A DNA stretch of 64,000 nt from an uncultured Gammaproteobacteria bacterium. GTDB lineage: Bacteria; Patescibacteriota; Patescibacteriia; Magasanikbacterales; JBBTQS01. Position 1 is the first letter of the stretch; each line of letters opens with the position of its first letter. Below the pieces are notes generated by a model. It was not told where the DNA came from. It searched no databases and saw only the letters and a list, made by a program, of their open reading frames with translations. Both the position numbers and the translations under genes were made by a program. Location of the stretch: positions 630,359 through 694,358 of the forward strand of contig OZ246400.1 of assembly GCA_965230935.1 (NCBI GenBank), given 5' to 3'. Below are positions 20,381-55,244 of the stretch, piece by piece.

Positions 20381-20408
20381 AAACCCGTGCCAGTTCTGGC
20401 GCGGGTTT
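20381..20408. terminator. Bidirectional hairpin terminating both livF and the GC-rich gene at 20434-20934.
   Basis: aaacccgtgcc-agttct-ggcgcgggttt is followed on the plus strand by the GT tract gatgttgtgtattgtgtgtga. The same tract read on the minus strand is the CA-rich motif directly after the cassette stop codon. Confidence 0.5.
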
Positions 20409-20433
20409 GATGTTGTGTATTGTGTGTGACTGC

Positions 20434-20934
20434 TCACGGCAGCGGACCCCACCTTGCAGCATGAGAAGCTTGCTCGGCAGGAAACGTACAGCACATCATG
20501 CCAGTTGGTGATACCGGTTCATCGCCGTCAGCATCCCGGAACGAGCGAACCCGCGCATGCTCTCGCTCTAAATCACTAACAGTGAAAGCACAAGCAAGAG
20601 AATCGATCGTTGTGATCCCAAGATGTGCACACATCTGGTTCGTTGGGACGTACATGTGCGGAGAAGTTCGGGCAAGACGGGCAGGGTCAATCTCACCAAC
20701 GGTCACCTGAGAACCAAAGTACCCCATCCAGAAGTCGTCACCCCCCTTTAGGACATATTGTGGTACCATTCCTGGCTTCCAAAGCCACAAAATGAACCAC
20801 GAGACCCATTTGTACTCCATGCTTGGCGGGTACACGACGGCATACCCTGGGACAACCTCAATGGTGTGCTCAGCAGGATTCCACCGCTCTGTGGGATCGC
20901 CAAGCTTTTCCATTGATAAACGCAACACTTCCAT
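20434..20934 (-). CDS. Hypothetical protein, GC-rich cassette A (166 aa), no recognisable family.
   Basis: ORF at about 62% GC against a roughly 43% backbone. Strong SD AAGGAGGGG 6 nt upstream of the ATG at 20932-20934. -10 TATAAAT (plus strand 20959-20965) with a weak -35. No motif I recognise (MEVLRLSMEKLGDPTERWNPAEH...). Confidence 0.55.
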   Translation of the reverse strand: MEVLRLSMEKLGDPTERWNPAEHTIEVVPGYAVVYPPSMEYKWVSWFILWLWKPGMVPQYVLKGGDDFWMGYFGSQVTVGEIDPARLARTSPHMYVPTNQMCAHLGITTIDSLACAFTVSDLEREHARVRSFRDADGDEPVSPTGMMCCTFPAEQASHAARWGPLP

Positions 20935-21073
20935 TGTTTACCCCTCCTTAGGAGACCTATTTATAGGTTACATTGTGTAGAAAATACTACGACACCCCAA
21001 ACAAAATAGTCCAATTTTTTGCAATTATTTGTCTAATTTTATATACTAAATCTGTCGAAACTTTTTCTACAAC

Positions 21074-21856
21074 ATGATTAAAAAATTACTCAAAAATCTT
21101 AACTTCTCTGAAAAAGAAGCCCAAACATACTTAGGTTTGCTTGAGCTAGGGTCTGGAAAAGGGGTAGAAATAGCCAAAAAAGCAAATCTTAACCGCACAA
21201 CCACCTACGATATCCTTAATGTGCTCATCAAACGCGGGCTAGTAAGTAAATTCAAAAAAGGGGCCTCAACATACTTTCATGCGCTTGAGCCAGAACGACT
21301 CCTATCCTATCTTGAACGTGATCAGCAAGAACACCGCAAAAAGATTGAAAAGCAGAAACAAAAGGTTCAAGAATTGCTTCCAGAACTTGTCTCTCTTCAA
21401 AACCCATCGACTACCAGGCCAAAGGTTCAATTCTTTGAAGGAGAAAAGGGTCTACGCGAAGCATATGAAGATACCCTTACCTGCAGAAGCACCATGTTAG
21501 CCTACACCAACCTAACTGAGATGAATAAAGCCATGCCGAACTTCTTTCCGGAGTATTTTAAACGACGAACAAAAGCAAAAATTCCTATTAATGCGATCTT
21601 TGTACAAAACAAAGATTCAAAAGAATGTGCACATTACGACCAAGTAGAACTACGTGAGACACGATTTATCCAAGACAAAGACGTCACATGGTCTCCGGAA
21701 GTGAAAATTTATAATGACAAAATGGTTATCGCTTCATGGAAAGAAAAAATGGCGGTAATTATTGAATCCAAAGAATTTGCAGACCTCCAAAAGACGGTCT
21801 TCAATGAACTCTGGAAAACATTACCAAAACATACACTTGAACAACGCAAACGATAG
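21074..21856 (+). CDS. TrmB-family (sugar-responsive type) transcriptional regulator.
   Basis: 260 aa. N-terminal wHTH LNFSEKEAQTYLGLLELGSGKGVEIAKKANLNRTTTYDILNVLIKRGLV, typical of TrmB. Confidence 0.65.
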   Translation: MIKKLLKNLNFSEKEAQTYLGLLELGSGKGVEIAKKANLNRTTTYDILNVLIKRGLVSKFKKGASTYFHALEPERLLSYLERDQQEHRKKIEKQKQKVQELLPELVSLQNPSTTRPKVQFFEGEKGLREAYEDTLTCRSTMLAYTNLTEMNKAMPNFFPEYFKRRTKAKIPINAIFVQNKDSKECAHYDQVELRETRFIQDKDVTWSPEVKIYNDKMVIASWKEKMAVIIESKEFADLQKTVFNELWKTLPKHTLEQRKR

Positions 21857-21857
21857 T

Positions 21858-22400
21858 ATGCAAAAACCCCTCAAACGCAAAACACTTTTCAAAGGCAAAC
21901 TCTTTACTGTCACTGAAGAGACATTCAAGAATCCATCTGGCAAACCGGTCACGTACGAACGCGTTGCACGCGTTCCATCAGTATACGTCCTCCCCCTTCT
22001 CTCTCCACAAAAAATAGTTCTGCTGCGCGAATGGCGCATCAGCCAAGGAAAATACTTGTGGAGACTACCAGCTGGGCGCGTAGATAAAGAACTGGGAGAT
22101 CCACACGCAACTACGACACTAAAAAAAGCTGCCCAGCGTGAACTCCAAGAAGAAGCAGGATACCGCGCTGCCAAACTCACCAAAGTCTACAAACGATTTG
22201 TTGGTGAATCCATCCAAGCGCCAGCATATGTCTTTCTTGCACAGAACCTCACCCCAGCTTCACTCCCCCAAGATGCTGATGAAAAAATTCGCGTGCACAC
22301 CATGAATCTTAAAGACGCATATGAGCTCGCAATTACCGGCAAAATAGGTGAGGAACTCATGGCGCTCATGATCATACGCCTGTACAAAAAAACGCTTTAG
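21858..22400 (+). CDS. NUDIX hydrolase (ADP-ribose pyrophosphatase-like).
   Basis: Nudix box GRVDKELGDPHATTTLKKAAQRELQEEAGY (GX5EX7REUXEEXGU). The track ORF 21762-22400 overlaps trmB, so I trimmed to the ATG at 21858. Confidence 0.8.
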   Translation: MQKPLKRKTLFKGKLFTVTEETFKNPSGKPVTYERVARVPSVYVLPLLSPQKIVLLREWRISQGKYLWRLPAGRVDKELGDPHATTTLKKAAQRELQEEAGYRAAKLTKVYKRFVGESIQAPAYVFLAQNLTPASLPQDADEKIRVHTMNLKDAYELAITGKIGEELMALMIIRLYKKTL

Positions 22401-22439
22401 AAATAAGCGCTTTTTTGCTATACTACTTGCACGGTTATC

Positions 22440-23324: not shown

Positions 23325-23326
23325 AT

Positions 23327-24742: not shown

Positions 24743-24743
24743 T

Positions 24744-25487
24744 ATGTCATCCACTTGGTACAAAAAATTTGCACTGGCGCTCATGATTGTATTTATTTTC
24801 GCGCCAACCATGGCACATGCCCAAGGATTTATTCCAAAACCAACTGGAAAGTGTCCGCAAGATAAATCTGGAAATGCGTACGAATGCGTCGAAGGAATAT
24901 GTAGTGGAACAAATATCCCATGTAACTACAGCTTGCAAGACATTCAAAACACCGTGGTCGGGATTGGAAACTGGATTTTTGGTATAATAGGAATCGTAGT
25001 ATTGATCACGCTAATCTACGGCGGATTCCTCTGGCTCATCAGTGCCGGTAACATGGAAATGGTGACTAAAGGAAGAAACATTATGATCGGCTCGATCATT
25101 GGTTTGTTACTTGTACTGAGTGCCGGCGTAGTCACGAAATGGGCGCTCAAGTCAGTGGGAGTAAAAGACGAAATCATTGATAAAATTCCGGTTGCTGGCA
25201 CCACACCATCTGATGGTAAAGGTGGTCCAGCTGCAGATCCTGCTGCTGCCGAATTTGTGTGTTCATGTTCTGCACCTACCGCACCAGTACAATACCAGTC
25301 AACCTTGCAAAAATGTTTTGATCCACCAGCGTCACAGCAGCCGGTTAATAGTACAAAATGTAAAACACTATTTTCCGCTACAGTTGACCCTGCTTTGCAA
25401 GTACACGTTGATGCTGGCCTCATTGACGAAGCTACAAAAACACAGCTCAAAGGACTCATCAATTGTTCAGCAAAAGATTCTTGCTAA
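24744..25487 (+). CDS. VirB2/TrbC-like (CPR T4SS-pilin type) protein 1, with a Cys-rich C-terminal extension.
   Basis: Signal peptide. Two hydrophobic helices IGNWIFGIIGIVVLITLIYGGFLWLISAGN and IMIGSIIGLLLVLSAGVV. Paralogous to the four following ORFs. The extra C-terminal domain has 8 Cys. Confidence 0.6.
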   Translation: MSSTWYKKFALALMIVFIFAPTMAHAQGFIPKPTGKCPQDKSGNAYECVEGICSGTNIPCNYSLQDIQNTVVGIGNWIFGIIGIVVLITLIYGGFLWLISAGNMEMVTKGRNIMIGSIIGLLLVLSAGVVTKWALKSVGVKDEIIDKIPVAGTTPSDGKGGPAADPAAAEFVCSCSAPTAPVQYQSTLQKCFDPPASQQPVNSTKCKTLFSATVDPALQVHVDAGLIDEATKTQLKGLINCSAKDSC

Positions 25488-25496
25488 CCCATTACT

Positions 25497-25880
25497 ATGC
25501 ATACGCTCACTCGCATTTCAATCGTCACACTCATTAGCGTAATTATTATTGGGCTGCTTGGCGCCATCCTAATCTCCCCAACAAACGCCCTAGCTGTGGA
25601 AGGTGTTGTTGAACTTGAAAACCCACTCAACTTAGACGAGGATCAACCGATTGCTGACCTAGCTGGACGAGTCATCCGAGCGTTCTTAGGTATCATTGGT
25701 ATCATTGGATTGGTCATCTTTATTTACGGTGGTGTCCTCTGGATGACCTCTGCTGGTCATGCTGAGCGCGTCACCCGAGGAAAAGACTTGTTTGTTTGGT
25801 CAATTGTAGGACTTGTGGTAATATTTAGTAGCTATACCATAGTGAGTTTTGTTCTTACCAAAGTTATTAGTAATGAGTAA
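25497..25880 (+). CDS. VirB2/TrbC-like pilin paralog 2.
   Basis: 127 aa. Signal/TM, then IRAFLGIIGIIGLVIFIYGGVLWMTSAGHAERVTRGKDLFVWSIVGLVVIFSSYTIVSF. Confidence 0.65.
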   Translation: MHTLTRISIVTLISVIIIGLLGAILISPTNALAVEGVVELENPLNLDEDQPIADLAGRVIRAFLGIIGIIGLVIFIYGGVLWMTSAGHAERVTRGKDLFVWSIVGLVVIFSSYTIVSFVLTKVISNE

Positions 25881-25958
25881 TCGTGTATTGACATCGTGTG
25901 ATATTCTTTGTCGCACAACGCTAATATACGATCAAATAAGAGGAAGGGGGTGAAACCT

Positions 25959-26363
25959 ATGACCACAACATTACAAAAAGCCGGAGTATGGTTTATGGTA
26001 GCGACCATGGCAGCACTTGTCGGTGTTACTATCGCGCCAACCATGAGTCATGCCGCAATTGATACTGACCTTAAAAAATTCCAAGGTACCACCGGACTTG
26101 GTAATAAGGACCTTAAAGAGACGATTGGTGGTATTGTAAAAGTCATTCTCGGTTTCCTCGGAATTTTAGCGGTATTGATCGTGCTTTGGGCAGGATTCCT
26201 CTGGATGACTGCAACCGGTAACGAAGATCAAATTGCAAAAGCAAAAGGTATCTTGATCGCCGGTGTGATTGGTTTGTTGATTATTATGTCAGCATACGCA
26301 ATTACCACATTCGTACTGAAGAATTTTGGAACAGAGACAGGAACAGCGTTCGGAGATCTCTAG
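25959..26363 (+). CDS. VirB2/TrbC-like pilin paralog 3.
   Basis: SD GAGGAAGGGGG then the ATG at 25959 (MTTTLQKAG...). Core motif ILGFLGILAVLIVLWAGFLWMTATGNEDQIAKAKGILIAGVIGLLIIMSAYAITTFV. Confidence 0.65.
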   Translation: MTTTLQKAGVWFMVATMAALVGVTIAPTMSHAAIDTDLKKFQGTTGLGNKDLKETIGGIVKVILGFLGILAVLIVLWAGFLWMTATGNEDQIAKAKGILIAGVIGLLIIMSAYAITTFVLKNFGTETGTAFGDL

Positions 26364-26400
26364 CGATACACTTGTCCGTACGATACATCTCACGTATACT

Positions 26401-26895
26401 ATGCAGCAGGGAATCCCCCTGCTGTTTAGTTTCATCACTATGTTGTTATCTATCATCACACGTGCGCCATGGCGCGCAATTACGATTGGATTATTTACAC
26501 TCGGAGTACTCTTCACTCCGCTGCTCGCAGTTCAAGCAGCACCGGGCGATGCTGCCAAAGGAAACTTTGGTCTTAATGCCGTAGGTGAAAACCTTAAGGG
26601 TGACCTCCCGTTTGCCGGAGAAGACCCTTCAACCGCTGGATCAAAGCTTCCACAAATCATCGGTCAAATTTTCCGTACACTTCTTTCCATTCTTGGTTTG
26701 ATCTTCCTGATCTTGATTGTCTATGGTGGTATGCGCTGGATGTTAGCGCGAGGTGATAGTGCTGAGGTTAACATGGCAAAAGAAATTTTGATCCATGCCT
26801 TTATTGGACTTATCATCGTAATCGCCGCCTTTAGTATTGTGAGTTTTGTCTTTGATAAAGTGGTTGTGCAAACTACCGAAGTACCAGCACCATAA
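26401..26895 (+). CDS. VirB2/TrbC-like pilin paralog 4.
   Basis: Track ORF 26326-26895. I placed the start at ATG 26401 to avoid overlap with paralog 3. Core motif LLSILGLIFLILIVYGGMRWMLARGDSAEVNMAKEILIHAFIGLIIVIAAFSIVSF. Confidence 0.6.
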   Translation: MQQGIPLLFSFITMLLSIITRAPWRAITIGLFTLGVLFTPLLAVQAAPGDAAKGNFGLNAVGENLKGDLPFAGEDPSTAGSKLPQIIGQIFRTLLSILGLIFLILIVYGGMRWMLARGDSAEVNMAKEILIHAFIGLIIVIAAFSIVSFVFDKVVVQTTEVPAP

Positions 26896-27353
26896 TGTTT
26901 ATGAAAAAACTTTTACTCGCTTTATTTGCTACCCTCCTTCTTCTCCCAAGCACTCCGGCTTTTGCACAAGAAGGCGGAGGTTTATATACCGGCACTCTTG
27001 ATGAGCTTGGCAAGGTTACGTATGGCGAAGATTTTAAAGAAGCCAAGCCGTTATCAGAAACCATCGGTGGGATCATTAAAGTATTACTTCAAGTCCTTGG
27101 TCTTCTGTTTATCATCCTATTGATCTATGGAGGTTTTATCTGGATGCTCTCTCGTGGAAATGAAAATGAAGTGACACGTGCAAAAGATATTCTTCAACAT
27201 GCACTGATTGGACTGATTATTGTTATCATCTCGTACTCTATTACCGTATTTGTCTTTAAGGGACTGGGTGAGGCCACTGGCACAGCATTTGAGAATCTTG
27301 AAGAAGATCCAAGTGGTGGCGCGGCTGCAGGTGGTGGAGGCGTCATACCATAG
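26895..27353 (+). CDS. VirB2/TrbC-like pilin paralog 5.
   Basis: 152 aa. Signal peptide. Core motif LLQVLGLLFIILLIYGGFIWMLSRGNENEVTRAKDILQHALIGLIIVIISYSITVF. Gly/Ala-rich tail. Confidence 0.65.
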   Translation: MFMKKLLLALFATLLLLPSTPAFAQEGGGLYTGTLDELGKVTYGEDFKEAKPLSETIGGIIKVLLQVLGLLFIILLIYGGFIWMLSRGNENEVTRAKDILQHALIGLIIVIISYSITVFVFKGLGEATGTAFENLEEDPSGGAAAGGGGVIP

Positions 27354-27364
27354 ATAGAGATAGT

Positions 27365-28655: not shown

Positions 28656-29615
28656 TTATTTTTTGCGATGATATTTTTTGTGCACAGTACGCAATCCCTT
28701 ATCAGTGATGTGCGTATAAATTTGTGTTGTGGTAATTGAACTATGCCCCAACATCTGCTGTACTGCCCGAATATCAGCGCCATTACGCAACAGATCAGTT
28801 GCATAAGAGTGACGCAACGTATGTGGGGTTACGGTCTTGGTAATACCGGCTTTGCGCGCAAGTCTCTCAATAATTCGTTGAACCGAGCGATCACTCAGTG
28901 GCCTATCTTCTGCAACGCGCGTCTTTGCCTTTTGTGCGCGATCATGCGATACAAATAGATAGGGGTTCATGTCTTTGCGCTTCTCAAGATAGCGCTTGAT
29001 CCAAAACCGTGCCTGATCTGACAAAAACACCACACGATTTTTCCCACCCTTCCCTTTAACGGTAAACTCATCGCGTTTGAGATTCACATCATCTTGCGTC
29101 AGTTTTACCAACTCTGAAACACGCAGTCCAGTGCTAAACAACAGCTCTACAATTGATTTATCACGCAACTGAGTCAAACTCAGTGACCGATCATTCACAT
29201 TGCCGGCTGCATCTTGAATTGGAGCTTGCAAAAACCGATCAAGATCCCCGGCTTCTAAAAAGGTCACGTCACGATCAGGCATTTTTGCCAATTCGATCTT
29301 TTCTGCTGAAAGTGTTTGTACATCACGCTTCGCCAAATACTTTAAAAACGAACGCAAGGCGATCAAATGATAATTCTGCGTATTTTTCTTGAGTGGTTCA
29401 CCATGAACATCAACCAATCGATTCAACCACAATCGATATTTTCGAACGTTTTCGAGTGTGATTTGTTTTGCACTAATATTGCCAACAAATTGCAAAAATC
29501 GATGTAAATAAAAATCGTAATTGCGAACCGTCCGCGCGCTTCGTCCGCGCTCCACTTCACAATACTCCAAAAAATCTCGGATGTATGGTTGTAATTTCTT
29601 TGCTGACTTTGCCAT
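28656..29615 (-). CDS. Tyrosine site-specific recombinase (XerC/XerD-like integrase family).
   Basis: N-terminal SAM-like domain YIRDFLEYCEVERGRSARTVRNYDFYLHRF. Catalytic R...HTLRHSYAT...LGHSSITTTQIYTH (R-H-R-Y). I placed the start at MAKSAKK (29615). The track ORF is 28656-29690. Confidence 0.85.
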   Translation of the reverse strand: MAKSAKKLQPYIRDFLEYCEVERGRSARTVRNYDFYLHRFLQFVGNISAKQITLENVRKYRLWLNRLVDVHGEPLKKNTQNYHLIALRSFLKYLAKRDVQTLSAEKIELAKMPDRDVTFLEAGDLDRFLQAPIQDAAGNVNDRSLSLTQLRDKSIVELLFSTGLRVSELVKLTQDDVNLKRDEFTVKGKGGKNRVVFLSDQARFWIKRYLEKRKDMNPYLFVSHDRAQKAKTRVAEDRPLSDRSVQRIIERLARKAGITKTVTPHTLRHSYATDLLRNGADIRAVQQMLGHSSITTTQIYTHITDKGLRTVHKKYHRKK

Positions 29616-29706
29616 ACCCACATTGTACGACACCTGCAACCGCAACACAACATGCAGCGATAGATAAAATACGGTATACTGACCATACATTATTAATCAT
29701 AATTTT

Positions 29707-32334
29707 ATGACAAGCTTGTCGCTATCATCTGCGCTGCGCTATACATTTCTTGTTGTTTGCGTTGCACTCTTAAGTGTTCTGTTGGCAACTCCTGCAGCAG
29801 CACAAGATGCTGATACTACTTCTGTCAGTGAAGCAGAAATTTTACAAGAAGAAAACGAAGCTGCAGAGCAAGACACTCGAGTTACTGCTGAAGACTTAAA
29901 CGCCGAAGAAGCAACGATTTTGCCAGACAGTCCATGGTATGGCTTTAAGCGCTTTGGTCGTGCATTTGGTGAATTTATTACATTTGACCCCGTCAAAAAA
30001 GCAGAGAAAAAACTACAAAACGCAAACAAGGCATTTGCAGAGTCGCTTCAACTCTTACAACGAAAAGGCAATGATGAAGAGGCAATTGCTGATGCCGCTA
30101 AAAACATCGAGCGAGCGACAGGCAAAATCGATAGTGTGCGACAGGCTGCCCCAAGACTTAAAGAAATTCGAACAGAAAAAAAAGAAGCAGTCGAAGCACT
30201 TACTGAAAAAATTCTCAAAACCGGATTTACCCACCAAAAAGTCATTGATCAAGTGGAGGAGTTTGTGGACGAACGTCCGGTGCAAGGCGCACAACAAATT
30301 CTTGAGCATATCCATACCGCACGTGAGCGAAGCGAACAAAGCACTGGTGAGTTGATTGGCACGATTGAGGATAATCCCGAGGCACTGCGCGAACGACTCA
30401 ATCATTTCCTCGATAATGAAGGTGGGAGTGATTATCGTCATATCAAGCATGGAGAGTTTTTGCGGCGATTAGAAGACCATCTTCCACAACAAGCTGCTGA
30501 TCGAGCACGCGAAGCCATTGCTGCGGCACGCGAGCGTCAGTTTGAACACCTCAGCGAAAAAATTGAACGTCGCCGCGGAGAAGACCGCGACAAATTCTTT
30601 GAAGGAATCTTTGACTATGCAGAACATCTTCCCGGAGATCATGCTGCCAACTTCCAAAACTTTGAGGAGTTTAAACATGTGATTAAAGATCCTGAGCTTG
30701 CAGCGAGACTTGAGGATGGAAAAGATATTTTTGCTCGTCGGTTTAAAGAGCGTCTTGAGCACCATGAGGAACGGTTTGACGACGAAGCGACTCGCGAGCG
30801 ATTTCGTGAACGCGAATTCGAACGCTTTGCTGGAAATGAAATCGAGCAAATCCAAGCTCAAAAAGACTTGATTAAACGTATTGAGTTTGAGTCAAAAGAA
30901 TTTGAAGCAAAAATCCGAAAACAAGAGCAAGAATTTGAGAAAAAAGCAGCAGCATCATTTCGAGAACGATTTACCGATGCAGATTCTACTGCGCTTGTTG
31001 ACCGCTTTGAGGCCTTGAGTGCACAAGCGGCAAAAAACCCAACTCCGGCAGTATTTGAAGCACTCGACGCACTGGAGCGTGAACTGACTCCTGAGCAAAA
31101 ACGATTTGTACAAGAAATTGAGGACAAAGCGCGTGGGGAACTTGAACGAAAATTTAAAGAACAAGGCGATGAATTCTTCAAACGCATTTCTACTAATGTG
31201 GCTGAAGATGTGCGAGCAATTGAGCAGCTTGGCCAACGATTTGATCACTTCGATGTTCCACCAGAGTTGATTGACCGTGCCGTACGCGAACACCAACGCC
31301 ACCAAGAAGAAAAGTTTGAGCGTCTAGAGGATCGTGAGTTTGAACGAGCGGCACGTGAGCGTATCCGTATTGAAGAAGAATTTCGTGCACGACTTGATGC
31401 GGTGGATTCTGAAGTGGAACATAGCCAACTTCTTGAAGAGAAACGTCGATTTAACGAAGCAAACCTTGAACGCGAACTTGAAGCGCGTAAACGTATCTTT
31501 GAAGAACGCATGGAAGATAGTGGGCCGTTTTGTGACGAGCGCTGTCAGGAAATCCGCCGCGAGCAATTCTTCCAAGATTTTGAACGCCACCGCAGCGATG
31601 TCAAGACTTCGACTGATCAGGATATTGTTCATGAGCGAGATGAATTCCGTCGCATGATGGAATTTGACCGATTAGAAGCTGAGGCACACGAGCGCGGTGA
31701 AGAAGGTGAATTTTTCCCACCACACCCAGGTGAATTTGGACCAGAGTTTGATCGAGGACAACCACCATTTGATCGTCCTGATTTCGAACGAGCACCGTTT
31801 GATGAACGGCCTGCATTTGAAACTGACCCTGATGAAGAAGTAAGACGATTTGACGAGTTACCACGTGATTTTGATACTCCAACACTTCCAGTATTTGATC
31901 ATCCAGAACGTCCCGAGATCCCGGAACGACCGTTTGATGAGCGACCTGAAGAGTTTCATCGTCCAGAACCAATCATCCGAGACCTCCCACGATTTGATGA
32001 TAGCCCTATCGACAAACCACGCGAATTTGATCGTCCAGACCCAGAGCATGCGCTCCCTGAGTTTGTTCCAGAACGTCCAATGCCGTCTCCTGATGCATTT
32101 CGACAAGGACCGCCGGCAGAAAGTTTTGTCGCCCCATCACAACCACCTTCCCGAGAATTTGATCAACCGTTTGGCCCACGGCCAGGTGAACCATTTATTG
32201 ACGGACCTGGGTTCGATGTGCCACCACCTGATTTCCCACAACCAGAGCTCCACTCATCATCCGGAAGCACGTGGGACTACATTGTTGAACAGTTACGCAG
32301 CTTCGTAAATCGCGCAAACGCAGGGCGATTCTAA
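29707..32334 (+). CDS. Large secreted DUF5667-type protein with a long E/R/F-rich coiled region and a Pro/Phe/Asp/Glu/Arg low-complexity C-terminus.
   Basis: 875 aa. Signal peptide. LPDSPWYGFKRFGRAFGEF motif typical of DUF5667 N-termini. Hundreds of residues of ERFxE-type repeats, then FDRPD/FDERP repeats. Confidence 0.55.
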   Translation: MTSLSLSSALRYTFLVVCVALLSVLLATPAAAQDADTTSVSEAEILQEENEAAEQDTRVTAEDLNAEEATILPDSPWYGFKRFGRAFGEFITFDPVKKAEKKLQNANKAFAESLQLLQRKGNDEEAIADAAKNIERATGKIDSVRQAAPRLKEIRTEKKEAVEALTEKILKTGFTHQKVIDQVEEFVDERPVQGAQQILEHIHTARERSEQSTGELIGTIEDNPEALRERLNHFLDNEGGSDYRHIKHGEFLRRLEDHLPQQAADRAREAIAAARERQFEHLSEKIERRRGEDRDKFFEGIFDYAEHLPGDHAANFQNFEEFKHVIKDPELAARLEDGKDIFARRFKERLEHHEERFDDEATRERFREREFERFAGNEIEQIQAQKDLIKRIEFESKEFEAKIRKQEQEFEKKAAASFRERFTDADSTALVDRFEALSAQAAKNPTPAVFEALDALERELTPEQKRFVQEIEDKARGELERKFKEQGDEFFKRISTNVAEDVRAIEQLGQRFDHFDVPPELIDRAVREHQRHQEEKFERLEDREFERAARERIRIEEEFRARLDAVDSEVEHSQLLEEKRRFNEANLERELEARKRIFEERMEDSGPFCDERCQEIRREQFFQDFERHRSDVKTSTDQDIVHERDEFRRMMEFDRLEAEAHERGEEGEFFPPHPGEFGPEFDRGQPPFDRPDFERAPFDERPAFETDPDEEVRRFDELPRDFDTPTLPVFDHPERPEIPERPFDERPEEFHRPEPIIRDLPRFDDSPIDKPREFDRPDPEHALPEFVPERPMPSPDAFRQGPPAESFVAPSQPPSREFDQPFGPRPGEPFIDGPGFDVPPPDFPQPELHSSSGSTWDYIVEQLRSFVNRANAGRF

Positions 32335-32366
32335 ACTCATCTCGTCATACGACACAAAAAAACAAG

Positions 32367-32389
32367 GCCCGGCAGTTCTGCTCGGGTCG
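32367..32389. terminator. Bidirectional terminator between the DUF5667 gene and GC-rich cassette B.
   Basis: ggcccggcag-ttctg-ctcgggtc hairpin. A7 upstream (a T7 run on the minus strand) and a GT tract gtcgtgtcgttgtgttgaattgtgtgttcg downstream. The hairpin loop is cagttctg, the same loop as the terminator at 20381-20408. Confidence 0.5.
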
Positions 32390-32418
32390 TGTCGTTGTGT
32401 TGAATTGTGTGTTCGTGA

Positions 32419-32958
32419 TCACACCACGGCGATCTCGAAATAGACGCTTCGCCCATCCTCGAACTCGAGCATCATCACTGCGGGCCGATAAATGGCCTCA
32501 CGCTTGTGATTCTGGAGTGCGGCGCGGCGCATTTGCCACCAGGCACGCCAGGTGGCCGGACGAATCCTGATGATGGTTCCGGTTACGATGCGCGGTTTGC
32601 ACTCGATAATCTCGAGTCCCCAGTGCAACCTAGCAACCTCGTCCATCTCCGGCAACATCGCCGCCTGCTGATCGGTGATCGGCCGCGCAAACACCAGGTC
32701 CAATGCCAGGTGCCAAAACACCATCCACCAGCGCTCGATCCAAAACTTGTAGTTGGAGAGCAGAATGGTGATCGTTCGTGGGATCTGCCCAGCCTCGTGC
32801 GAGAGTCCGACCTGCTTGAGGTACATGGCGGCCTTCGCTCGCACATGTGCGGTACGTGCCGCCTGGCGCGCATCCGCTGTTGAAGCGCCTTGCTCCAACG
32901 CCTCGCGGTGCGTACACAGCGAGTACAATGTCCCCCCTTGGTTGCTGCTCATGAACAT
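32419..32958 (-). CDS. Hypothetical protein, GC-rich cassette B (179 aa), no recognisable family.
   Basis: About 63% GC. SD AAGGAGG 6 nt before the ATG at 32956-32958. Trp-rich segment FWIERWWMVFWHLALDL. No motif recognised. Confidence 0.5.
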   Translation of the reverse strand: MFMSSNQGGTLYSLCTHREALEQGASTADARQAARTAHVRAKAAMYLKQVGLSHEAGQIPRTITILLSNYKFWIERWWMVFWHLALDLVFARPITDQQAAMLPEMDEVARLHWGLEIIECKPRIVTGTIIRIRPATWRAWWQMRRAALQNHKREAIYRPAVMMLEFEDGRSVYFEIAVV

Positions 32959-32992
32959 CCTCCTTGGGGGAAACCCCTGTCATGAAACACTA

Positions 32993-33021
32993 ACTATAGT
33001 GTATCATAACCGAATTGTCAA
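32993..33021 (-). promoter_or_regulatory. Consensus sigma70 promoter of cassette B overlapped by a 16-bp palindrome.
   Basis: Minus strand: TTGACA, a 17-nt spacer, then TATAGT. The palindrome ACACTAACTATAGTGT (32987-33002) overlaps the -10 and matches the NrdR consensus at 14/16 positions. Confidence 0.5.
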
Positions 33022-33122
33022 GTTCTACGCTATTTTGTTTGACAAAAGCCCTAAAAATCAATACTATTTTGATATATCGTTGTAAACAATCAATCTTCTA
33101 ATTTACCTAAAATCAAGAACAT

Positions 33123-34346
33123 ATGGCTGCAAAAAAGCCAGAACAATTTTCTGGGGAGAGCCCCGCAGAAAAAAAATTCTTCACACAGGGGGATGCTGAT
33201 ACTAAATTTGCTGAACAATGGGAACGGGCATCTAACCCTCCTGAAAAAGCAAACCTTAAAAAGAAAAGTGCTGAAGCACGGGCTCTTGAGGCACTCGACG
33301 CACCACCTACAGCAGAAGAAGTTGCAGAAGGAAAACGAGAAGCGCAACGTCTTGAAGGAGAAGGAGGACCAATCCCTACTGATTCACAAATGGAGCAAGA
33401 TTTTTTTGATACATCTAAATCCAGAAAAGAAATGCTTGCACGAGAGGCGGCCGTTGAAGCAAGTCGCCCTGCCGATCACGAAGCCAAAAAAGCAGAGCAT
33501 CTTAAAATAGCAGAAGAAGAGGAGCAAGCAATGACACAAGCAGAACGTGATGCTAAAGCAGATGAATGGTTGGAAGCACAAGATGAAGACAATCAACCCG
33601 GCCTTTTACGTCAATGGTTTGGGAAGTTGTTTGGTAAAAAGAAAGAAAAGGCAGAGCCCCGTTTTAGCCAAGAGATGCACGCTGAGGCAGGAAAAATGGG
33701 TGAAAAGTTGAACCCTGAGGAAAAAGCACAGATGGAGACTATGTTAGAATTTGTCAACGAAGGTCAAATGGGAGAAGCAGTGGTTGCTGCTGCAGAATCA
33801 GCACAGGGATCTACTCGTCTCAAAGAGCTTCTTGAAAAAACTGATGTGCTCAAACTCACTACTGGAATTGATGATCTTAATCTTGCACCTCTTGTAAAAG
33901 CTCTTCAAGAGAATCCAGGAACCCGTGAAACATTTAAAACCCAATTCGATCAACTGGTAAACAGTGAGCCGACCCAAGCCATTACACTCTTCATGCAGGC
34001 GCATGAAAAAGGGACAGGAGATCCATTCTACGAAGTGCTCCCTGATGACTTTCCACAACAAATTTTAGAACGATACGTAAAAGTCGAGGCAATTGCCGAT
34101 CTGAGAGGGCAGGCACGCGAAGATGTCCAAAAAGAACTTAAAGCATTTTGGGGTATGATCAGAGGAGGTAAGTTTGAAGATGCGCTGGAATATGTACAAA
34201 AAGCAAACGACGAGGAAGATTCACCGCAAGCACTCAAAGACTACCTCTCCAATGACAAACTCCACACCATCTTAGGAGACCTCTACACACAACAAGCTTT
34301 GGCGAAACAAACTGGTTCGCAGGATAAAGAGGTAAAAGCAGCGTAA
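33123..34346 (+). CDS. Acidic, highly charged soluble protein of unknown function.
   Basis: 407 aa, no TM, E/K/A/Q-rich. Intact ORF with a terminator downstream at 34371-34401. Confidence 0.45.
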   Translation: MAAKKPEQFSGESPAEKKFFTQGDADTKFAEQWERASNPPEKANLKKKSAEARALEALDAPPTAEEVAEGKREAQRLEGEGGPIPTDSQMEQDFFDTSKSRKEMLAREAAVEASRPADHEAKKAEHLKIAEEEEQAMTQAERDAKADEWLEAQDEDNQPGLLRQWFGKLFGKKKEKAEPRFSQEMHAEAGKMGEKLNPEEKAQMETMLEFVNEGQMGEAVVAAAESAQGSTRLKELLEKTDVLKLTTGIDDLNLAPLVKALQENPGTRETFKTQFDQLVNSEPTQAITLFMQAHEKGTGDPFYEVLPDDFPQQILERYVKVEAIADLRGQAREDVQKELKAFWGMIRGGKFEDALEYVQKANDEEDSPQALKDYLSNDKLHTILGDLYTQQALAKQTGSQDKEVKAA

Positions 34347-40216: not shown

Positions 40217-40226
40217 CAAATTATCT

Positions 40227-40634: not shown

Positions 40635-40732
40635 ACATGAATGCCTTTTCTTAGGTTGTTTACAACTTTGCAGGAGCGATGGGACACCATTCGAATATTT
40701 TTTGGTATATATAGTTGATTAGAAATAGCTCA

Positions 40733-41038: not shown

Positions 41039-41422
41039 ACTTTTGCTTACTCTATTTATCAATAGATTAGTTAGGTGTAGTTTATATAAAAATAACATAA
41101 GCATTTGTGAATGTAAACATCACCTCTCGACAGTTCTAAACATATTATCGTACCGTTGCAGGAGCAACAAGACTACATCCATCAAAGCTTTGTTAATCTG
41201 ATCGATAAATTCAAATCACTTACAAAATACTAAGTTTAGTAAAATTTCAATTTTCAAAATCAACTTTCACAACTTTTCCACATTTTGTGGACAGAAATTG
41301 CAAAACTGTGGATACATTTAGTATACACCAACAATTTTGTATAGACTTGTGTATACAAAAAATCGTAAGAATAGCGACTTTTTAAGCTTAATTTAAACAA
41401 AAAATAGCAAAATTTGCCGAAC

Positions 41423-41451
41423 TTGACAAAACCCTTTTTTTCGTGTATACT
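41423..41451 (+). promoter_or_regulatory. Consensus sigma70 promoter driving the non-coding unit upstream of dksA.
   Basis: TTGACA (41423-41428), a 17-nt spacer, TATACT (41446-41451). Confidence 0.5.
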
Positions 41452-41457
41452 AGTAAC

Positions 41458-41883
41458 AGTTCCTTAGAAAACCATTTCAAGTACGCATTAAAACGGGTGA
41501 CACCAAAAAAACATACGTGTCACAAGTCTTAAGAGCCGTGCTTCGATCGAATCATCCTCTTCCATTGCTACTGTTCTTAATTGCAAGGAAATCAAAATAA
41601 AACAAAGCGGGCGTAGTAGCTCCGCGAATAGCTCCGAGGTGCCCTATAGTCTTCCCTGTCTTGTGCAGGTCGAGGACGCGTGGATCACACCTTTCGAATG
41701 GTAGGAATGGCAAACAAACAGCCGATTGTGGGCTTGTTTGGACCGATGATGGTGGTCAGTGTACATCTTTGCGGTGTATAGCGATCACCATCATATGGAC
41801 CACGCTCACTCAACAGGCATCGGGGACTTACCTCCGGCCATCTATACACCTAGGGCGTCAGGACGTAAGTCCCTTGTTTTTTT
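41458..41883 (+). ncRNA. Candidate structured ncRNA or long regulatory leader (about 420 nt), family not identified.
   Basis: Bounded by the consensus promoter and a strong terminator (ggggacttacc ... ggacgtaagtccc then TTGTTTTTTT, 41822-41883). No ORF of 60 aa or more with an SD. Internal helices include gtgacac/gtgtcac (41507-41526) and a 9-bp stem gatgatggtg/caccatcat (41745-41796). It lacks RNase P, tmRNA and SRP RNA signature motifs. Confidence 0.35.
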
Positions 41884-48559: not shown

Positions 48560-48656
48560 TCACCTTTTGCTTCTCTGCATCAACCATGCAGAGTGTACAG
48601 GAGATGATTCACCCGAGGGCCCATGAAGGGCTCTCTTCGTAAGAGGAGAGAATTGG

Positions 48657-49226
48657 ATGACACTGAGCAAGAGACAGAAAGAGATTCTGGGTTGCTTCCG
48701 GGATTACGTGGGCAACGCGCTCATGGCCCCCTTGGGCAATACCGACGTGTGGCTGGAATCAGGTGACGAGACCATCATGGAGGAGCTGGCCGCCATGGAC
48801 GAGTACCTGGCCAACGATGCGGGGGCTCTCGAGACCTTCCAGCAGTACCGTGAGCGGCTCCGTGAGCAATTCATCAAGGACCGGCCGGACTCGCCCACGT
48901 ACGAGGAGTGCATCGCCGCATTCCCGCACATGGCGGCCTGGGTTGACTGGGTCTGGGAGTTCGTGAACAGCCGTATGGAGGCCATGCACGCTGAGCGCGA
49001 CAGCCGGGCGGTGTACCGGGTGATGCGCTACACGATCCTGGGACAGGAGATCTTGAAGTTCGTCCGCAAGATCAGCAGGCTGGTGGTGATCATCTTCAAG
49101 TTCCAGGCGCCGACCCTGGATCCGGTGTACGCGTCGTATCTTCAGGAGAAACACCTGTTCGACCAGACGATGGCCGACACCTTCGGCACCACCAGCGACT
49201 CCGGAGGACCTGGAGTCATTCCCTGA
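48657..49226 (+). CDS. Hypothetical protein, GC-rich cassette C (189 aa), no recognisable family.
   Basis: About 61% GC. SD AGGAGAG 6 nt before the ATG. No own -35/-10 found, so possibly read through from rpsT past a T-less hairpin at 48576-48596. Followed by the CA tract ACACACTACACAACAACAACCC (49227-49250) and a terminator. Confidence 0.5.
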   Translation: MTLSKRQKEILGCFRDYVGNALMAPLGNTDVWLESGDETIMEELAAMDEYLANDAGALETFQQYRERLREQFIKDRPDSPTYEECIAAFPHMAAWVDWVWEFVNSRMEAMHAERDSRAVYRVMRYTILGQEILKFVRKISRLVVIIFKFQAPTLDPVYASYLQEKHLFDQTMADTFGTTSDSGGPGVIP

Positions 49227-49235
49227 CTCGACACA

Positions 49236-50189
49236 CTACACAACAACAACCCAATGCAGGAGCTCGCGCATCGACGCCGCTCCTGTTTTGATTTTGCGAT
49301 CCATTACTAATAAAATGCGCTCGCCATTGATCAACTCCACCTTACGATATCGCCCCAACAAGGGGAGTGTCTTTTTTACAACAAATGGATGCAACCCGAG
49401 TTTTTTTGCCAAATCTGCCGGATTCTCATTTGGATGTTCTTGCTGCGCACTATGCAAATCAAGCAAAATACGATATTGCCGAACGAGCATGCCAAATACC
49501 TGCATTGGCTCAGCGCCGTATCGCCATTGAGATTCAAGAAGTTGCAACGCCCGGCTCCGATCCTTTTGGGTAATCGCATCCATCAACGCAAAAATAGCAT
49601 CCTCAGTTTTAGCTTCAACAAAAATATCAACGTCTTTAATAGTAATTGCTCTGTCGGCACAATACATCACTAACTGATGCAGTCGATTTGCAAGCTTCCA
49701 TGAATCATCAGCAAGCGCATCAGCGATTCGTGTTACGGCACCCGGCTCAATCGTACCACCATATTCACCAACCAACTTCTTAATCCACGTCTTGAGTTGT
49801 GCGCCACTGGGGAGTTCAAATTGTTGCGCAAACTTTTGTGTGCGCAAAACATCAAAGAGTGCACTTTGTGCTTTTTTTACTTTTTCAAGCTCAGTCCACA
49901 ACACAAATACCGTGTCCTCACGTAACGCGAGCATGGTATGTTGCTGCTCAAACCATTCAAATAGTATTTTACTTGCCTGCTCAAAAAGACGTGGCACAAT
50001 CACCATGCGCTTTTGCGCTAAAAACGGTGCTGCGAGCAACAACTCTTTGTTTTGTGCATCAGACTGGGATAAATCTAACGTCACTACGTTCATTCCAGAC
50101 GGATCACGATCTTGAATAAACTTATCCTGCATCTTATGCAGTTGCGCATGAAGACGATAGGTATCTGCCCCGTACAAAAAAATAATCAT
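49236..50189 (-). CDS. holA: DNA polymerase III delta subunit.
   Basis: MIIFLYGADTYRLHAQL... matches the HolA N-terminal domain. I placed the start at 50189, 1 nt from the polA stop. The track ORF extends to 50264. The last about 20 codons read through the cassette C terminator hairpin and end inside its CA tract. Confidence 0.7.
   Translation of the reverse strand: MIIFLYGADTYRLHAQLHKMQDKFIQDRDPSGMNVVTLDLSQSDAQNKELLLAAPFLAQKRMVIVPRLFEQASKILFEWFEQQHTMLALREDTVFVLWTELEKVKKAQSALFDVLRTQKFAQQFELPSGAQLKTWIKKLVGEYGGTIEPGAVTRIADALADDSWKLANRLHQLVMYCADRAITIKDVDIFVEAKTEDAIFALMDAITQKDRSRALQLLESQWRYGAEPMQVFGMLVRQYRILLDLHSAQQEHPNENPADLAKKLGLHPFVVKKTLPLLGRYRKVELINGERILLVMDRKIKTGAASMRELLHWVVVV
49256..49297 (+). 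terminator. Intrinsic terminator of cassette C. It lies inside the 3' end of the holA reading frame.
   Basis: caggagc-tcgcgcatcgacgcc-gctcctg followed by TTTTGATTTT. Confidence 0.6.
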
Positions 50190-50190
50190 A

Positions 50191-52830: not shown

Positions 52831-52864
52831 AGAACATCATCACCATACCACTAAAAACAAACAA

Positions 52865-52899
52865 GGGCTACCACGGTGACGCGAGTCGATGTGGTACCC
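52865..52899 (-). terminator. Terminator of GC-rich cassette D1, 34 nt upstream of the polA start codon.
   Basis: Minus strand: gggtaccac-atcgactcgcgtcacc-gtggtagccc followed by TTGTTTGTTTTT. It is preceded by the CA tract ACAACACAACATTTACAACC. Confidence 0.5.
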
Positions 52900-52933
52900 A
52901 AGTTGGTTGTAAATGTTGTGTTGTCCTCGGTGC

Positions 52934-53703
52934 TCAGCGGCGCTCCAGCGGACCGAAGAGGTGATCGCTGATCTGCTCGAGCATGCCGCCCGGCAGGTCC
53001 GTGCTGCGGCCCAGCTCCTGGGCCGTGCCGGAAGCACTCCAGACCTTGCCATCACGCCGGTAGTACACGTCCATGACCCGGTCGTGCGGATCCAGGTATG
53101 CGATCTGCAACGCGTCGCAGCCCTCGATGGCGATGGGCTCACCGTGCTCGGCGACCATCTCCCAGTCGGTCCCGGCTTCATGCGCAGCGGGAAGCCTCGA
53201 CGGGTGAGCACCGCGACCCCCGGCGTGGGACCACCCAGGTGGGCGTTCCGGAGTCGGTTGTCACCCAGGTACATGGCCAACACCGAGGCCCCATCACGCA
53301 CCAGATCGTACTGCTGCAGGTACCCGGGAAGGATTGCGCCGCTGGTGAGCAGCTGCTTGCAGAGCTTGGTGACGGCGTCGGCCACCCAGCCCTGGCACAC
53401 CCCCATGCCCAACACCTGATCGAGCGTGATCAGCGCCCGTTTGCTGTGGCCGTTTGTGCCACACACCTGGATGCTGTACACGCGCCCGTAGCGCGGATCC
53501 GGATCCTCGATCATGGCCGGTGCGGAGTTGGTCTCGTCGCTGTTCTCGGCGAACAACACCTCCACCACCAACCCATCGGGGTTCCCCTCATGCACGATCT
53601 GATCGTGCCTGATACGAACGCCGAGCAACTCGTCTCCGACGTGCGCGTCGAGAATGCCCAGCAGGCCGCCCGAGAGCTTGCCTGCCTTCCACGTCTGCCG
53701 CAT
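52934..53703 (-). pseudogene. GC-rich cassette D1: hypothetical protein (about 256 aa if repaired) interrupted by a -1 frameshift at a G5/C5 run (53216-53220).
   Basis: Frame X (from the ATG at 53701-53703, MRQTWKAGKL...) reads as real protein for about 165 aa, then degenerates into S/R/T-rich text. Frame Y (... MVAEHGEPIAIEGCDALQIAYLDPHDRVMDVYY ... FGPLERR, stop at 52934) reads as protein. Adding one G in the G5 run joins the frames. About 68% GC. A consensus promoter (TTGACA, 16-nt spacer, TACACT; plus strand 53751-53778) and SD TAAGGAGGT lie upstream. Confidence 0.45.
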
Positions 53704-53834
53704 GGCAAACCTCCTTATCTACATTGCTACGCCAGACGCGCAGTAGTATGAGTGTAACTAAAATAAGGAAAATGTCAAGGAGTTTGGCGCAAATTCAAAA
53801 TATTTCCTTATGAAAACCCCTAAAATCACAAAAG

Positions 53835-53872
53835 CCACATGCGTTGTTGATGCCGGTAGGCAAACGCAGTGG
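53835..53872 (-). terminator. Terminator of GC-rich cassette D2.
   Basis: Minus strand: ccactgcgtttgcc-taccggcatc-aacaacgcatgtgg followed by CTTTTGTGATTTT. It is preceded by the CA tract TTACACACAAAACACATACAACC (plus strand GT tract 53904-53926). Confidence 0.45.
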
Positions 53873-53995
53873 CTCTTGGCTCTCGCTAAGTCGCGAGTGC
53901 AAAGGTTGTATGTGTTTTGTGTGTAATCCGATCCGCACGACCCTCAGCGCGAAGGCCGAGGACTACCGCGCCTTACGGCGCCGGCAGTGGCCTGA

Positions 53996-54991
53996 TCAGG
54001 CCGCGGCCCGGATGGGCGCGGCCAACTTGCGGCCGATGTCCTCGATCGACGCGCCCGGGATGCCGGCCGCCTCGAACTGCTCGACGCCGCCGATCGTCGG
54101 GAGCGGGAAGCCGTCGTCGTCCTTGGCGAACGTCGAGAGGCCGACCTTGTCCTTCTTCCACGGGGCGGTCCCCTCGAGGCCGACGACGCGCTGGATGCCG
54201 TTGTCGATCTCGTTGGTGCCGAGGCTCGAGAAGGTCAGCTTGCCCGTCTCGTCCTTCTCGCCCTTGAGGGTCAGGATCTCGCGCTTGCCCGTCTCGTCCT
54301 CGATGTGCACGCCCAGGTTGAACGTGGTCGAGTCGTCGGCGCGGTAGTAGCGCGTGCAGGTGTGGTGCTTGCCGCGGACCTTGAAGCCGCCGTCGATGGT
54401 CTTGAAGCCCTCGCCGGCGAGCAACTTGCCCGCGTTGTTCTCGTCCAGCATCTGGATCTCGCCGATCTTGTTGGTGTACATGATCGACGCGCCCGGGATG
54501 AACGAGGCCGTGCGCACGCGGCCGGTGGACGGCAGCGTCGTGACCTGCTTGGTCGCCACGTCGACGAAGAGCACCGTGCCCTTGTCGTAGCGGCTCGCGA
54601 GCGCGGTCATGCCGCCGTACTTGCCGCCGAACATGTCGTCGACCGCCGCCCCGATCTCGCCGAGCACCCGCTTGCCGTTGAGGTTGGCGGCCGGGTAGTC
54701 GTCGTCCACGGTCACCAGCTGGCGCCGGATCGGGCCGCTGTACGTCGCGACCGTCTGGATCGCGATGTAGCCCTCGGTCGTGCTGAACTTCTCGACCGGC
54801 TCGCCCGTGGCCCCCTCGGCGCCGACCTGGTTGATCGCGACCTGCACGCGCACGTCCTTGTACGCGCAGGTCAGGATGTCCATGCCGTGCACCCACAGGG
54901 CGACGAGCTGCGTCGGCAGCACGCCCGCGAGCAGGCCACCCAGGTCTTTGAGCTGGATCTCGGTCTTGAAGGTCTGGCGTTTGATGTCCAA
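53996..54991 (-). CDS. Hypothetical protein, GC-rich cassette D2 (331 aa), Gly/Thr/Asp/Lys-rich and probably beta-rich; family not recognised.
   Basis: About 68% GC with extreme GC3. TTG start with SD TAGGAGAC 7 nt upstream. The overlapping ORFs on both strands are high-GC artefacts. Confidence 0.5.
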   Translation of the reverse strand: MDIKRQTFKTEIQLKDLGGLLAGVLPTQLVALWVHGMDILTCAYKDVRVQVAINQVGAEGATGEPVEKFSTTEGYIAIQTVATYSGPIRRQLVTVDDDYPAANLNGKRVLGEIGAAVDDMFGGKYGGMTALASRYDKGTVLFVDVATKQVTTLPSTGRVRTASFIPGASIMYTNKIGEIQMLDENNAGKLLAGEGFKTIDGGFKVRGKHHTCTRYYRADDSTTFNLGVHIEDETGKREILTLKGEKDETGKLTFSSLGTNEIDNGIQRVVGLEGTAPWKKDKVGLSTFAKDDDGFPLPTIGGVEQFEAAGIPGASIEDIGRKLAAPIRAAA

Positions 54992-55104
54992 GATGAAGTC
55001 TCCTAACAGTTTCTACCCGACAGCGCGTCGGGGCTGGAAATGACGTCTCGTCCCCTCACTCCCCCTCACACACTTCTGGCGGGTTTGGAAACAAAGCTGA
55101 CGAG

Positions 55105-55133
55105 ATTCTACAGCAAACTCAAATCCATGTCAA
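55105..55133 (-). promoter_or_regulatory. Consensus sigma70 promoter of cassette D2.
   Basis: Minus strand: TTGACA (plus 55128-55133), a 17-nt spacer, TAGAAT (plus 55105-55110). About 110-nt GC-rich 5' UTR with a hairpin cccgac-gcgct-gtcggg just before the SD. Confidence 0.5.
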
Positions 55134-55244
55134 GAGCAAAATTACGCCTAAAATTAAAGAAGTTTTTTCACACAAACAAAAAATGCGGACAATATTTGTC
55201 TCACATTGAGAAAAAAGCTCGAATCTGCTATCCTGGGGATGCTG

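Follow-up and report, generated by a model that had tools for sequence, protein, structure and literature searches.

How do single genes of strongly elevated GC content come to stand between the housekeeping genes of an otherwise AT-rich chromosome, and are such genes foreign? The stretch in which this question arose (hereafter the window) comprises 64,000 nucleotides of contig OZ246400.1 (assembly GCA_965230935.1, positions 630,359 to 694,358 of the forward strand). It belongs to a chromosome of about 0.93 Mb from the Patescibacteria (Candidate Phyla Radiation, CPR) and carries five open reading frames (ORFs), cassettes A, B, C, D1 and D2, located 5-40 kb from the replication origin oriC in gaps between housekeeping operons. 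GC content averaged about 0.43-0.47 over the window (0.40-0.47 in the backbone, with a GC content at third codon positions, GC3, of 0.30-0.48 in backbone genes), and windowed GC rose to sharp peaks at all five ORF positions reported by a first-pass annotation, which had been made from the sequence alone and had suggested that the five are captured foreign genes. That they are real, autonomous and compositionally deviant units held up. They are neither one family nor one event, and one of them, D2, has long resided in a conserved slot flanked by tRNA-Cys and polA, its protein diverging far faster than the backbone. The reading that we favour, with a probability of roughly 40%, is that these are real autonomous genes, that the GC-richness of the D2 slot is maintained in place by selection on message composition, and that the other units are younger arrivals or are subject to the same pressure.

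The case for residence comes from the relatives. Over 22 kb, gene order was the same in the window and in two related genomes, L001 and L034: dnaA, dnaN, PBP, a 223-aa gene, tRNA-Cys, the D slot, polA, holA, the C slot, rpsT and rmuC. Core proteins of the three were 65-76% identical in every pair. In both L001 and L034 the D slot held one gene of 64-66% GC (336 and 359 aa, GC3 0.88-0.89), standing behind a TTGACA-17-TAGAAT or TAGTAT promoter. A HMMER scan of 1.84e9 representative proteins with D2 returned only two true relatives, P0001 (42% identity) and P0002 (32%), plus one spurious WD40 match. The contigs that encode them (L085 and L086) showed low-GC flanks, the same promoter, a CAG(C/T)TTTG start region and the same G-rich motif in the untranslated region (UTR), and in L086 tRNA-Cys adjoins the slot gene, as it does in the window. 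GC3 of these two orthologs was 0.97 and 0.96. Homologs at the same locus in related low-GC genomes, which the first-pass annotation had named as the observation that would speak against capture, were thus found for D2. No D2 homolog was detected in any GC-rich organism among the 1.84e9 representative proteins, and none in phage, plasmid and viral sets. The slot is conserved in at least five genomes, each time with a GC3-rich gene of about 330-360 aa (GC3 0.88-0.99). Its occupants change quickly: the proteins of the L001 and L034 slot genes (L001D and L034D) shared 23-24% identity (E 1e-9), as against about 68% in the backbone, and no similarity between the D2 type and the L001D type was found by BLAST, profile comparison or a permutation test.

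We then compared synonymous sites. At fourfold sites of conserved codons in dnaA, dnaN, PBP and rmuC of the three genomes, the third base agreed at a frequency of 0.33-0.48, against 0.27-0.36 expected at random, and was A or T in 55-85% of cases. Agreement this near to random indicates that backbone synonymous sites are close to saturation, at an A/T-rich equilibrium. Third-base agreement between slot genes was similarly low (0.39 against 0.37 expected for L001D/L034D, and 0.53 against 0.45 for D2 and its ortholog on L085), and third bases in slot genes were G or C at 80-100%, with at most 2% A and at most 20% T. The choice between C and G has been randomised in these genes without entry of A or T. 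Since the relic of an old import would have ameliorated, what remains is maintenance of G/C in place or repeated, precise re-import into the slot.

Protein composition was also examined. The lysine share of lysine plus arginine, K/(K+R), was 0.46-0.61 in the five slot proteins, as in the backbone, whereas among 51 genes of GC3 0.8 or higher from truly GC-rich loci the median was 0.30 and 2-14% reached slot values. The slot genes look like native-type proteins of which only the synonymous sites have been pushed to G/C. Predicted folding energy of D2 was about -0.47 kcal/nt, compared with -0.19 to -0.32 in the backbone, a predicted value per nucleotide about 1.5-2.5 times as high as in backbone genes.

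The five units are built alike in part. In our reading, each unit comprises a promoter of sigma-70 type (replaced in C by read-through from rpsT), a strong Shine-Dalgarno (SD) sequence, the ORF, an unpaired spacer of C and A only, and an intrinsic terminator. An SD of AAGGAGG type, reported earlier as host-style, was read in the sequence ahead of all five ORFs. The TTGACA-16/17 promoters assigned to B, D1 and D2 were likewise recovered (33021-32993, 53778-53751 and 55133-55105), and an own promoter together with a factor-independent terminator around a single ORF was found for these three. A has a terminator and no clear promoter; C has a terminator, is without a promoter of its own and appears to depend on rpsT read-through. 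An intrinsic terminator, that is, a GC-rich hairpin with a T run, is present at the 3' end of all five units, and those of A and B act on both strands. The features are as follows.

20434-20934, minus strand: cassette A ORF, 166 aa, GC 0.53, GC3 0.53, orphan; SD TAAGGAGGGG at 20941-20950
20409-20428, minus strand: C/A-only tract of A, CACACACAATACACAACATC
20380-20408, both strands: A hairpin with flanking A and T runs, a bidirectional intrinsic terminator in common with the convergent livF (19633-20358)
32993-33021, minus strand: B promoter, TTGACA-17-TATAGT
32419-32958, minus strand: cassette B ORF, 179 aa, or more probably 177 aa if the start is the ATG at 32952, which AAGGAGG precedes; GC 0.60, GC3 0.76
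32389-32413, minus strand: C/A tract of B, AACACACAATTCAACACAACGACAC
32355-32388, both strands: B terminator hairpin and T run, in common with the convergent DUF5667 gene (29707-32334)
48573-48635, plus strand: two hairpins 3' of rpsT, preserved in three genomes by compensatory changes; pairing between the second and the C SD (48640-48650) is possible
48657-49226, plus strand: cassette C ORF, 189 aa, GC 0.61, GC3 0.84, without own promoter
49231-49252 and 49256-49296, plus strand: C/A tract of C, and hairpin with T run, within the conserved 3' coding end of holA (49236-50189, minus strand)
53751-53778, minus strand: D1 promoter, TTGACA-16-TACACT
52934-53703, minus strand: cassette D1 ORF, GC3 0.85 in each of the two halves into which a frameshift near 53159-53178 divides it
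52902-52924 and 52853-52899, minus strand: C/A tract of D1, and terminator hairpin with T run, directly upstream of polA
55105-55133, minus strand: D2 promoter, TTGACA-17-TAGAAT, conserved in five genomes
54992-55104, minus strand: D2 5'UTR, with CAGCTTTGTTT and the G-rich motif GTGTGTGAGGGGGAGTGAGGGG (55052-55073), both kept across the slot in relatives
53996-54991, minus strand: cassette D2 ORF, 331 aa, TTG start, GC 0.68, GC3 0.99
53822-53995, minus strand: D2 3' region, with GC-rich hairpins (53928-53995), C/A tract (53904-53926), a small hairpin, and terminator with T run (53822-53873)
55244-55316, plus strand: tRNA-Cys, conserved left border of the D slot

Counterparts of the hairpins that follow rpsT lie at 14047-14156 in L001 and 12285-12393 in L034; it is the 3' side of the second hairpin that can pair with the SD of the C-slot gene. 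For the D1 promoter, the second of the D region, homology with L085 is not claimed, as the alignment with the window was of low quality.

The element common to the 3' ends is the C/A tract. Tracts of C and A that lack G and lie ahead of the terminator, no more than 110 nt from the stop codon, were found after 5/5 cassettes and after 9/57 other genes (Fisher 3e-4). A similar frequency after most backbone genes, which the first-pass annotation had named as speaking against its proposal, was not seen. Specific association of the CA tract with the cassettes in this genome holds up. In minimum-energy folds of all five 3' ends the tract, whose bases are unable to pair with one another, was unpaired and was followed by the hairpin and then the T tract. 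The word ACACAAC occurred in the window as often as expected (13 observed, 12.8 expected), 4/13 occurrences lying within 30 nt downstream of cassette stops. The only other gene with such a word right after its stop is a PH-domain backbone gene (4670-5224), which is followed by ACACAAC-type words (5229-5235) before its terminator. The loop word CAGAACTG, reported as identical in the A and B hairpins, does form the apex of both, though its frequency in the window overall is that expected by chance. The claim that the same 3' module stands directly after each stop codon held as to tract, hairpin and T run (5/5). It needs qualification in that the A and B hairpins are shared terminators, the C element lies inside holA, and the D2 tract comes 68 nt late, behind a 68-nt GC-rich, hairpin-forming 3'UTR. 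Pairing between 5'UTRs and CA tracts was considered and rejected, duplex energies being no better than those of shuffles (D2 marginal only, z -2). In other CPR loci the tract was not coupled to GC3-rich genes (1/28 GC3 outliers, 15/1756 other genes), the sole look-alike being one in locus L138. Logan unitigs of the same population (L082 and L089) stop at the boundary between CA tract and hairpin of A (20445) and B (32388).

Codon structure differed among the five. From codon periodicity, all five ORFs are real coding genes; structured non-coding RNA was tested for as well, and the strong three-base periodicity and the lack of Rfam matches show that the units are not RNA genes. GC of the ORFs was 0.53 for A, 0.60 for B, 0.61 for C, 0.64 for D1 and 0.68 for D2, so that the 60-70% GC first attributed to all of them, in a background of about 43%, applies to B, C, D1 and D2 (0.60-0.68) and not to A. 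At the first, second and third codon positions GC was 0.59/0.49/0.53 in A, 0.58/0.46/0.76 in B, 0.58/0.39/0.84 in C and 0.61/0.43/0.99 in D2. A GC3 near saturation, likewise claimed for all, is a property of D2 only, given 0.84 in C, 0.85 in D1, 0.76 in B and 0.53 in A. Although each unit had been described as one ORF, D1 carries a frameshift, since its GC3 signal (0.85 in each half) changes from frame 0 to frame 2 near 53159-53178. The frameshift is identical in three public assemblies of the same population, and it could be explained by gene decay to a pseudogene, by programmed frameshifting or by a consensus error common to the assemblies. Composition does jump sharply at the ORF boundaries, as reported, except that at D2 the GC-rich stretch extends 68 nt beyond the stop. 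GC3 also dropped with distance from oriC, from 0.99 in D2 (5 kb) through 0.85 in D1, 0.84 in C (11 kb) and 0.76 in B (27 kb) to 0.53 in A (39 kb), a trend that with n=5 may be due to chance. The public annotation of the source contig has two antisense ORFs (233 and 165 aa; 53844-55006, plus strand) in place of D2, and gene callers trained on an AT-rich backbone mis-strand GC3-rich genes. Because the caller put antisense ORFs in place of D2, homologs from CPR genomes are probably under-recorded in protein sets; GC-rich donor genomes would not share this problem of mis-stranded gene calling.

For the remaining four units the evidence was of another kind. The proteins of A, B, C and D1 are of GC type in their amino acids (Lys 2.4-3.7%, K/(K+R) 0.23-0.35, Trp up to 4.5%). 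That the cassette proteins belong to no recognisable family was borne out, no match being obtained in Pfam, PHROGs, NCBIfam, PADLOC or PDB sequences, and none in Rfam or among phage, plasmid and viral contigs. B and C matched only themselves among 5.8e9 proteins. The searches with A and D1, which covered family libraries, PDB (A) and phage, plasmid and viral sets rather than the large protein sets, found nothing. No cross-family similarity was seen among the cassettes and the outlier ORFs of other loci. B lies in a segment composed of the DUF5667 gene, B and a gene for an acidic protein of 407 aa (29707-34346) between xer and rpsO; because xer and rpsO are adjacent in many CPR relatives, this segment is a lineage-specific insertion. 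L001 has a positional counterpart of C, of GC3 0.54 and marginal similarity to C (E 0.011; permutation p about 0.04), which is followed by CA-rich words of its own that overlap the holA stop. In L034, the closest relative, runs of N mask the C slot (12190-12282) and part of polA. Empty sites in relatives, which the first-pass annotation had proposed to look for, were seen in part: D1 is not present in L001 and L034, and the B region is absent in more distant relatives, but the D2 slot is occupied in five genomes. At strain level the test found no clusters of at least 90% identity from other samples, the population being clonal. These four units may have been imported from some GC-rich source, or may have been exposed for longer to the pressure seen at the D slot. 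No description of the phenomenon was found in the searchable literature.

According to the reading that we favour, GC-richness at the D slot would be kept in place by a force acting on synonymous sites. Selection on message composition is preferred because the slot proteins keep backbone-like Lys/Arg and replacement sites are little affected. A coding region ending in G/C would yield an mRNA poor in A and U and much more stably folded, which the terminator hairpin would cap. The structure-free CA linker might, as a conjecture, serve to separate the GC-rich body from both the hairpin and the terminating ribosome. The orphans A, B, C and D1 occupy similar units and are read as either younger arrivals from a GC-rich source or genes on which the same pressure has acted longer, A being perhaps largely equilibrated and D1 decaying.

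Several observations weigh against this reading. Selection for specific mRNA folds was rejected, since synonymous shuffles gave z of -0.5 to -2.6 (mean -1.4) for GC-rich genes, which is not distinguishable from the values of 14 backbone genes (mean -0.8, sd 1.4), so there is no positive evidence of folding selection beyond composition. Ribosomal-protein genes have an ordinary GC3 (0.41), and the usual translational selection is therefore not the cause. First and second codon positions and the 3'UTR of D2 are also somewhat GC-enriched, which fits a regional force (biased gene conversion) or foreign origin. The C-slot gene has a GC3 of 0.84 here and 0.54 in L001, so that maintenance is not universal, and orthologous D slots in relatives are without a CA tract, the spacer role being assumed. 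The D2 and L001D types may be one gene diverged beyond recognition, or may reflect replacement within the slot. Finally, the case for maintenance is built on three genes of D2 type and two of L001D type, the L085 and L086 contigs being 1.3-1.4 kb long.

The main rival to message selection is GC-biased gene conversion at hypervariable recombination hot spots, where allele exchange with G/C-biased heteroduplex repair would saturate synonymous sites and leak into UTRs and replacement sites. It would account for the GC-rich 3'UTR of D2 and the slight enrichment of its first and second codon positions, as well as for the very fast divergence of slot proteins between conserved flanks. It also fits the targets of diversity-generating retroelements (DGRs), which undergo repeated conversion mediated by cDNA and are GC3-enriched over their whole length (0.91, 0.80 and 0.63, with medians of 0.40, 0.48 and 0.39, in three other CPR loci). 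The vls locus of Borrelia and similar antigenic-variation loci are much more GC-rich than their genomes, which points the same way. Yet the slot proteins keep backbone-like Lys/Arg despite rapid replacement, the window holds no donor copies, silent cassettes, reverse transcriptase (RT) or template repeat (TR), and known bacterial effects of this kind are small, far from a GC3 of 0.99. On balance we consider biased conversion unlikely, though a serious contender. Slightly lower in likelihood stands the view of the first-pass annotation, that all five are recent GC-rich imports (from host Actinobacteria or phages) brought in by one cassette mechanism, with the CA tract marking the junction or recombination site. 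Much of what was described above agrees with it: the sharp composition jumps, including the donor-like GC-rich hairpin 3'UTR of D2; the GC-type amino acids of A, B, C and D1; the place of B within an insertion absent where rpsO abuts xer; the frameshift of D1 and its absence from two relatives; the tie of the CA tract to all five units; and a look-alike unit in L138 on a small element integrated in an apparent transfer-messenger RNA (tmRNA) gene. Foreign capture accordingly stays viable for A, B, C and D1. For D2 it conflicts with same-slot orthologs, none of them in GC-rich genomes, with backbone-like Lys/Arg and with third positions that have been randomised as to C or G and yet have gained no A or T. 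Nor does a single capture or shuffling process, or a gene set from an actinobacterial host, find support in D2, and no recombinase, integrase, array, boundary repeat or att- or attC-type core site accompanies the units. B and C are without relatives among the 5.8e9 proteins, the tract of C belongs to the holA coding sequence, the hairpins are terminators of the ordinary, shared sort, and in other CPR loci no link between the tract and GC3-rich genes was seen.

Recoding for a GC-rich partner can be envisaged as well: genes transcribed in the symbiont would have their DNA, mRNA or codon usage adapted to a GC-rich host cell, in the manner of T-DNA. CPR bacteria live as episymbionts, and native-type proteins with host-type synonymous sites, a conserved 5'UTR motif, a stable capped message and T4SS-pilin-family genes in the window are all compatible with such a role. 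We regard it as improbable, no sign of any transfer having been seen, promoter and SD being of the symbiont's own types, and family searches having shown no recognisable secretion or effector feature in the cassette proteins. That the units are an artefact of chimeric assembly or GC-rich contamination is hardly credible. Short Logan unitigs do end at the 3' boundaries of A and B (20445 and 32388), but identical junctions appear in independent ENA, Logan and NCBI assemblies from several samples, the same architecture recurs in four other genomes, and promoters, SDs and terminators of backbone type directly abut the ORFs.

Among known systems, phage morons are the closest concept for these units. 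Juhala, Hendrix and co-workers are said to have described them in 2000 as autonomous promoter-gene-terminator units between conserved genes. The likeness lies in one ORF, equipped with a sigma-70-type promoter and an intrinsic terminator of its own, wedged between conserved genes, of deviant composition and of unknown or accessory function. These units differ in being chromosomal, near housekeeping genes and oriC rather than in a prophage, and in that at least one is conserved in place across relatives with its deviant composition kept, not ameliorated. Integron cassettes also combine a one-gene module with a structured 3' element, but they are ruled out here by the absence of intI, an array and attC and by the own promoters of B, D1 and D2. 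Moreover, the units are dispersed over 35 kb, their hairpins are terminators with T tails, of which two also serve convergent genes, and no RYYYAAC/GTTRRRY core sites were seen by inspection. With ameliorating islets, for which an amelioration model of horizontally acquired genes reportedly goes back to Lawrence and Ochman, the units have in common atypical GC, orphan proteins and a graded GC3 (0.53 to 0.99); they depart from it in that D-slot GC3 outlasts synonymous saturation of the backbone, amino acids are native-like and no donor lineage is found in databases. GC-elevated hypervariable loci, such as DGR targets in CPR and Borrelia vls, resemble the units in having fast-evolving proteins encoded by genes GC-richer than the genome, but the window has no RT, template repeat or silent cassette, and here the whole ORF is enriched. 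A DGR target, suggested by GC3-rich targets in three CPR loci, was rejected because the 64-kb window contains no RT, Avd or pair of template and variable repeats (TR/VR).

Those three loci carry DGRs near xer/rpsO, with an RT, an Avd-like gene and TR/VR pairs showing adenine-specific differences (L149, 6707-9302; L138, 11972-14477; L152, 2203-4681), their targets being GC3-raised over the whole length. In L138, a 211-nt direct repeat that to the eye resembles the 3' portion of a tmRNA gene flanks a 2.9-kb element at 14871-18165; with ARAGORN, no tmRNA was called in this locus. This element contains a Fic/helix-turn-helix gene, an AEP-TOTE primase fragment and an orphan ORF of GC3 0.84 (16872-17723), downstream of which come GC-rich hairpins, then a CA-rich tract (17787-17810), then a terminator.

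The wider setting of the window is that of a CPR chromosome. The best relatives of its polA were metagenome-assembled genomes of Patescibacteria/CPR, two at 66-79% identity and then Magasanikbacteria at 49%, and the source population (ENA project PRJEB17505) is clonal, the longest of its contigs measuring 931 kb. The cumulative GC skew minimum and the dnaA-dnaN spacer coincide at about 60 kb of the window, indicating that the region adjoins oriC. The probable oriC is the interval 60047-60322 between dnaN (58928-60046) and dnaA (60323-61720), minus strand. Words resembling DnaA boxes occur in this interval, as does a CA-rich tract poor in G and about 130 nt long (60154-60279), and the cumulative GC skew turns there. 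Neighbours of the units are livF, trmB, rpsO, pnp, rpsT, holA, polA, dnaN and dnaA, the genes named earlier proving to be as named, and no phage matches were obtained. The sole tyrosine recombinase in the window (28656-29690) is the Xer-type gene that adjoins rpsO across CPR. A low-GC island (37953-41600, 31-37% GC), which deviates in the direction opposite to the cassettes, encodes a PAS/HAMP histidine kinase (38270-40216), a response regulator (40227-40634) and two unknown ORFs. At 24744-27353 a run of small genes with T4SS_pilin family matches stands beside a gene for a solute-binding protein.

Atypical GC content is routinely read as a sign of recent transfer, and here composition alone would mislead. 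The case of D2 suggests that synonymous sites of ultra-small symbionts can be subject to a gene-specific force, be it message selection, biased conversion or adaptation to a partner, and GC3-rich genes of this kind from CPR genomes are probably under-represented in protein databases. As a speculation that we hold to be distinctly unlikely, this CPR clade might keep a few fast-evolving genes recoded to G/C at practically all synonymous sites, contrary to the A/T-rich equilibrium of the genome, in dedicated expression slots near the origin for a purpose outside ordinary translation in the symbiont, such as expression in or delivery to a GC-rich host, or a very persistent message. If true, such recoding would be a new kind of gene-specific compositional control.

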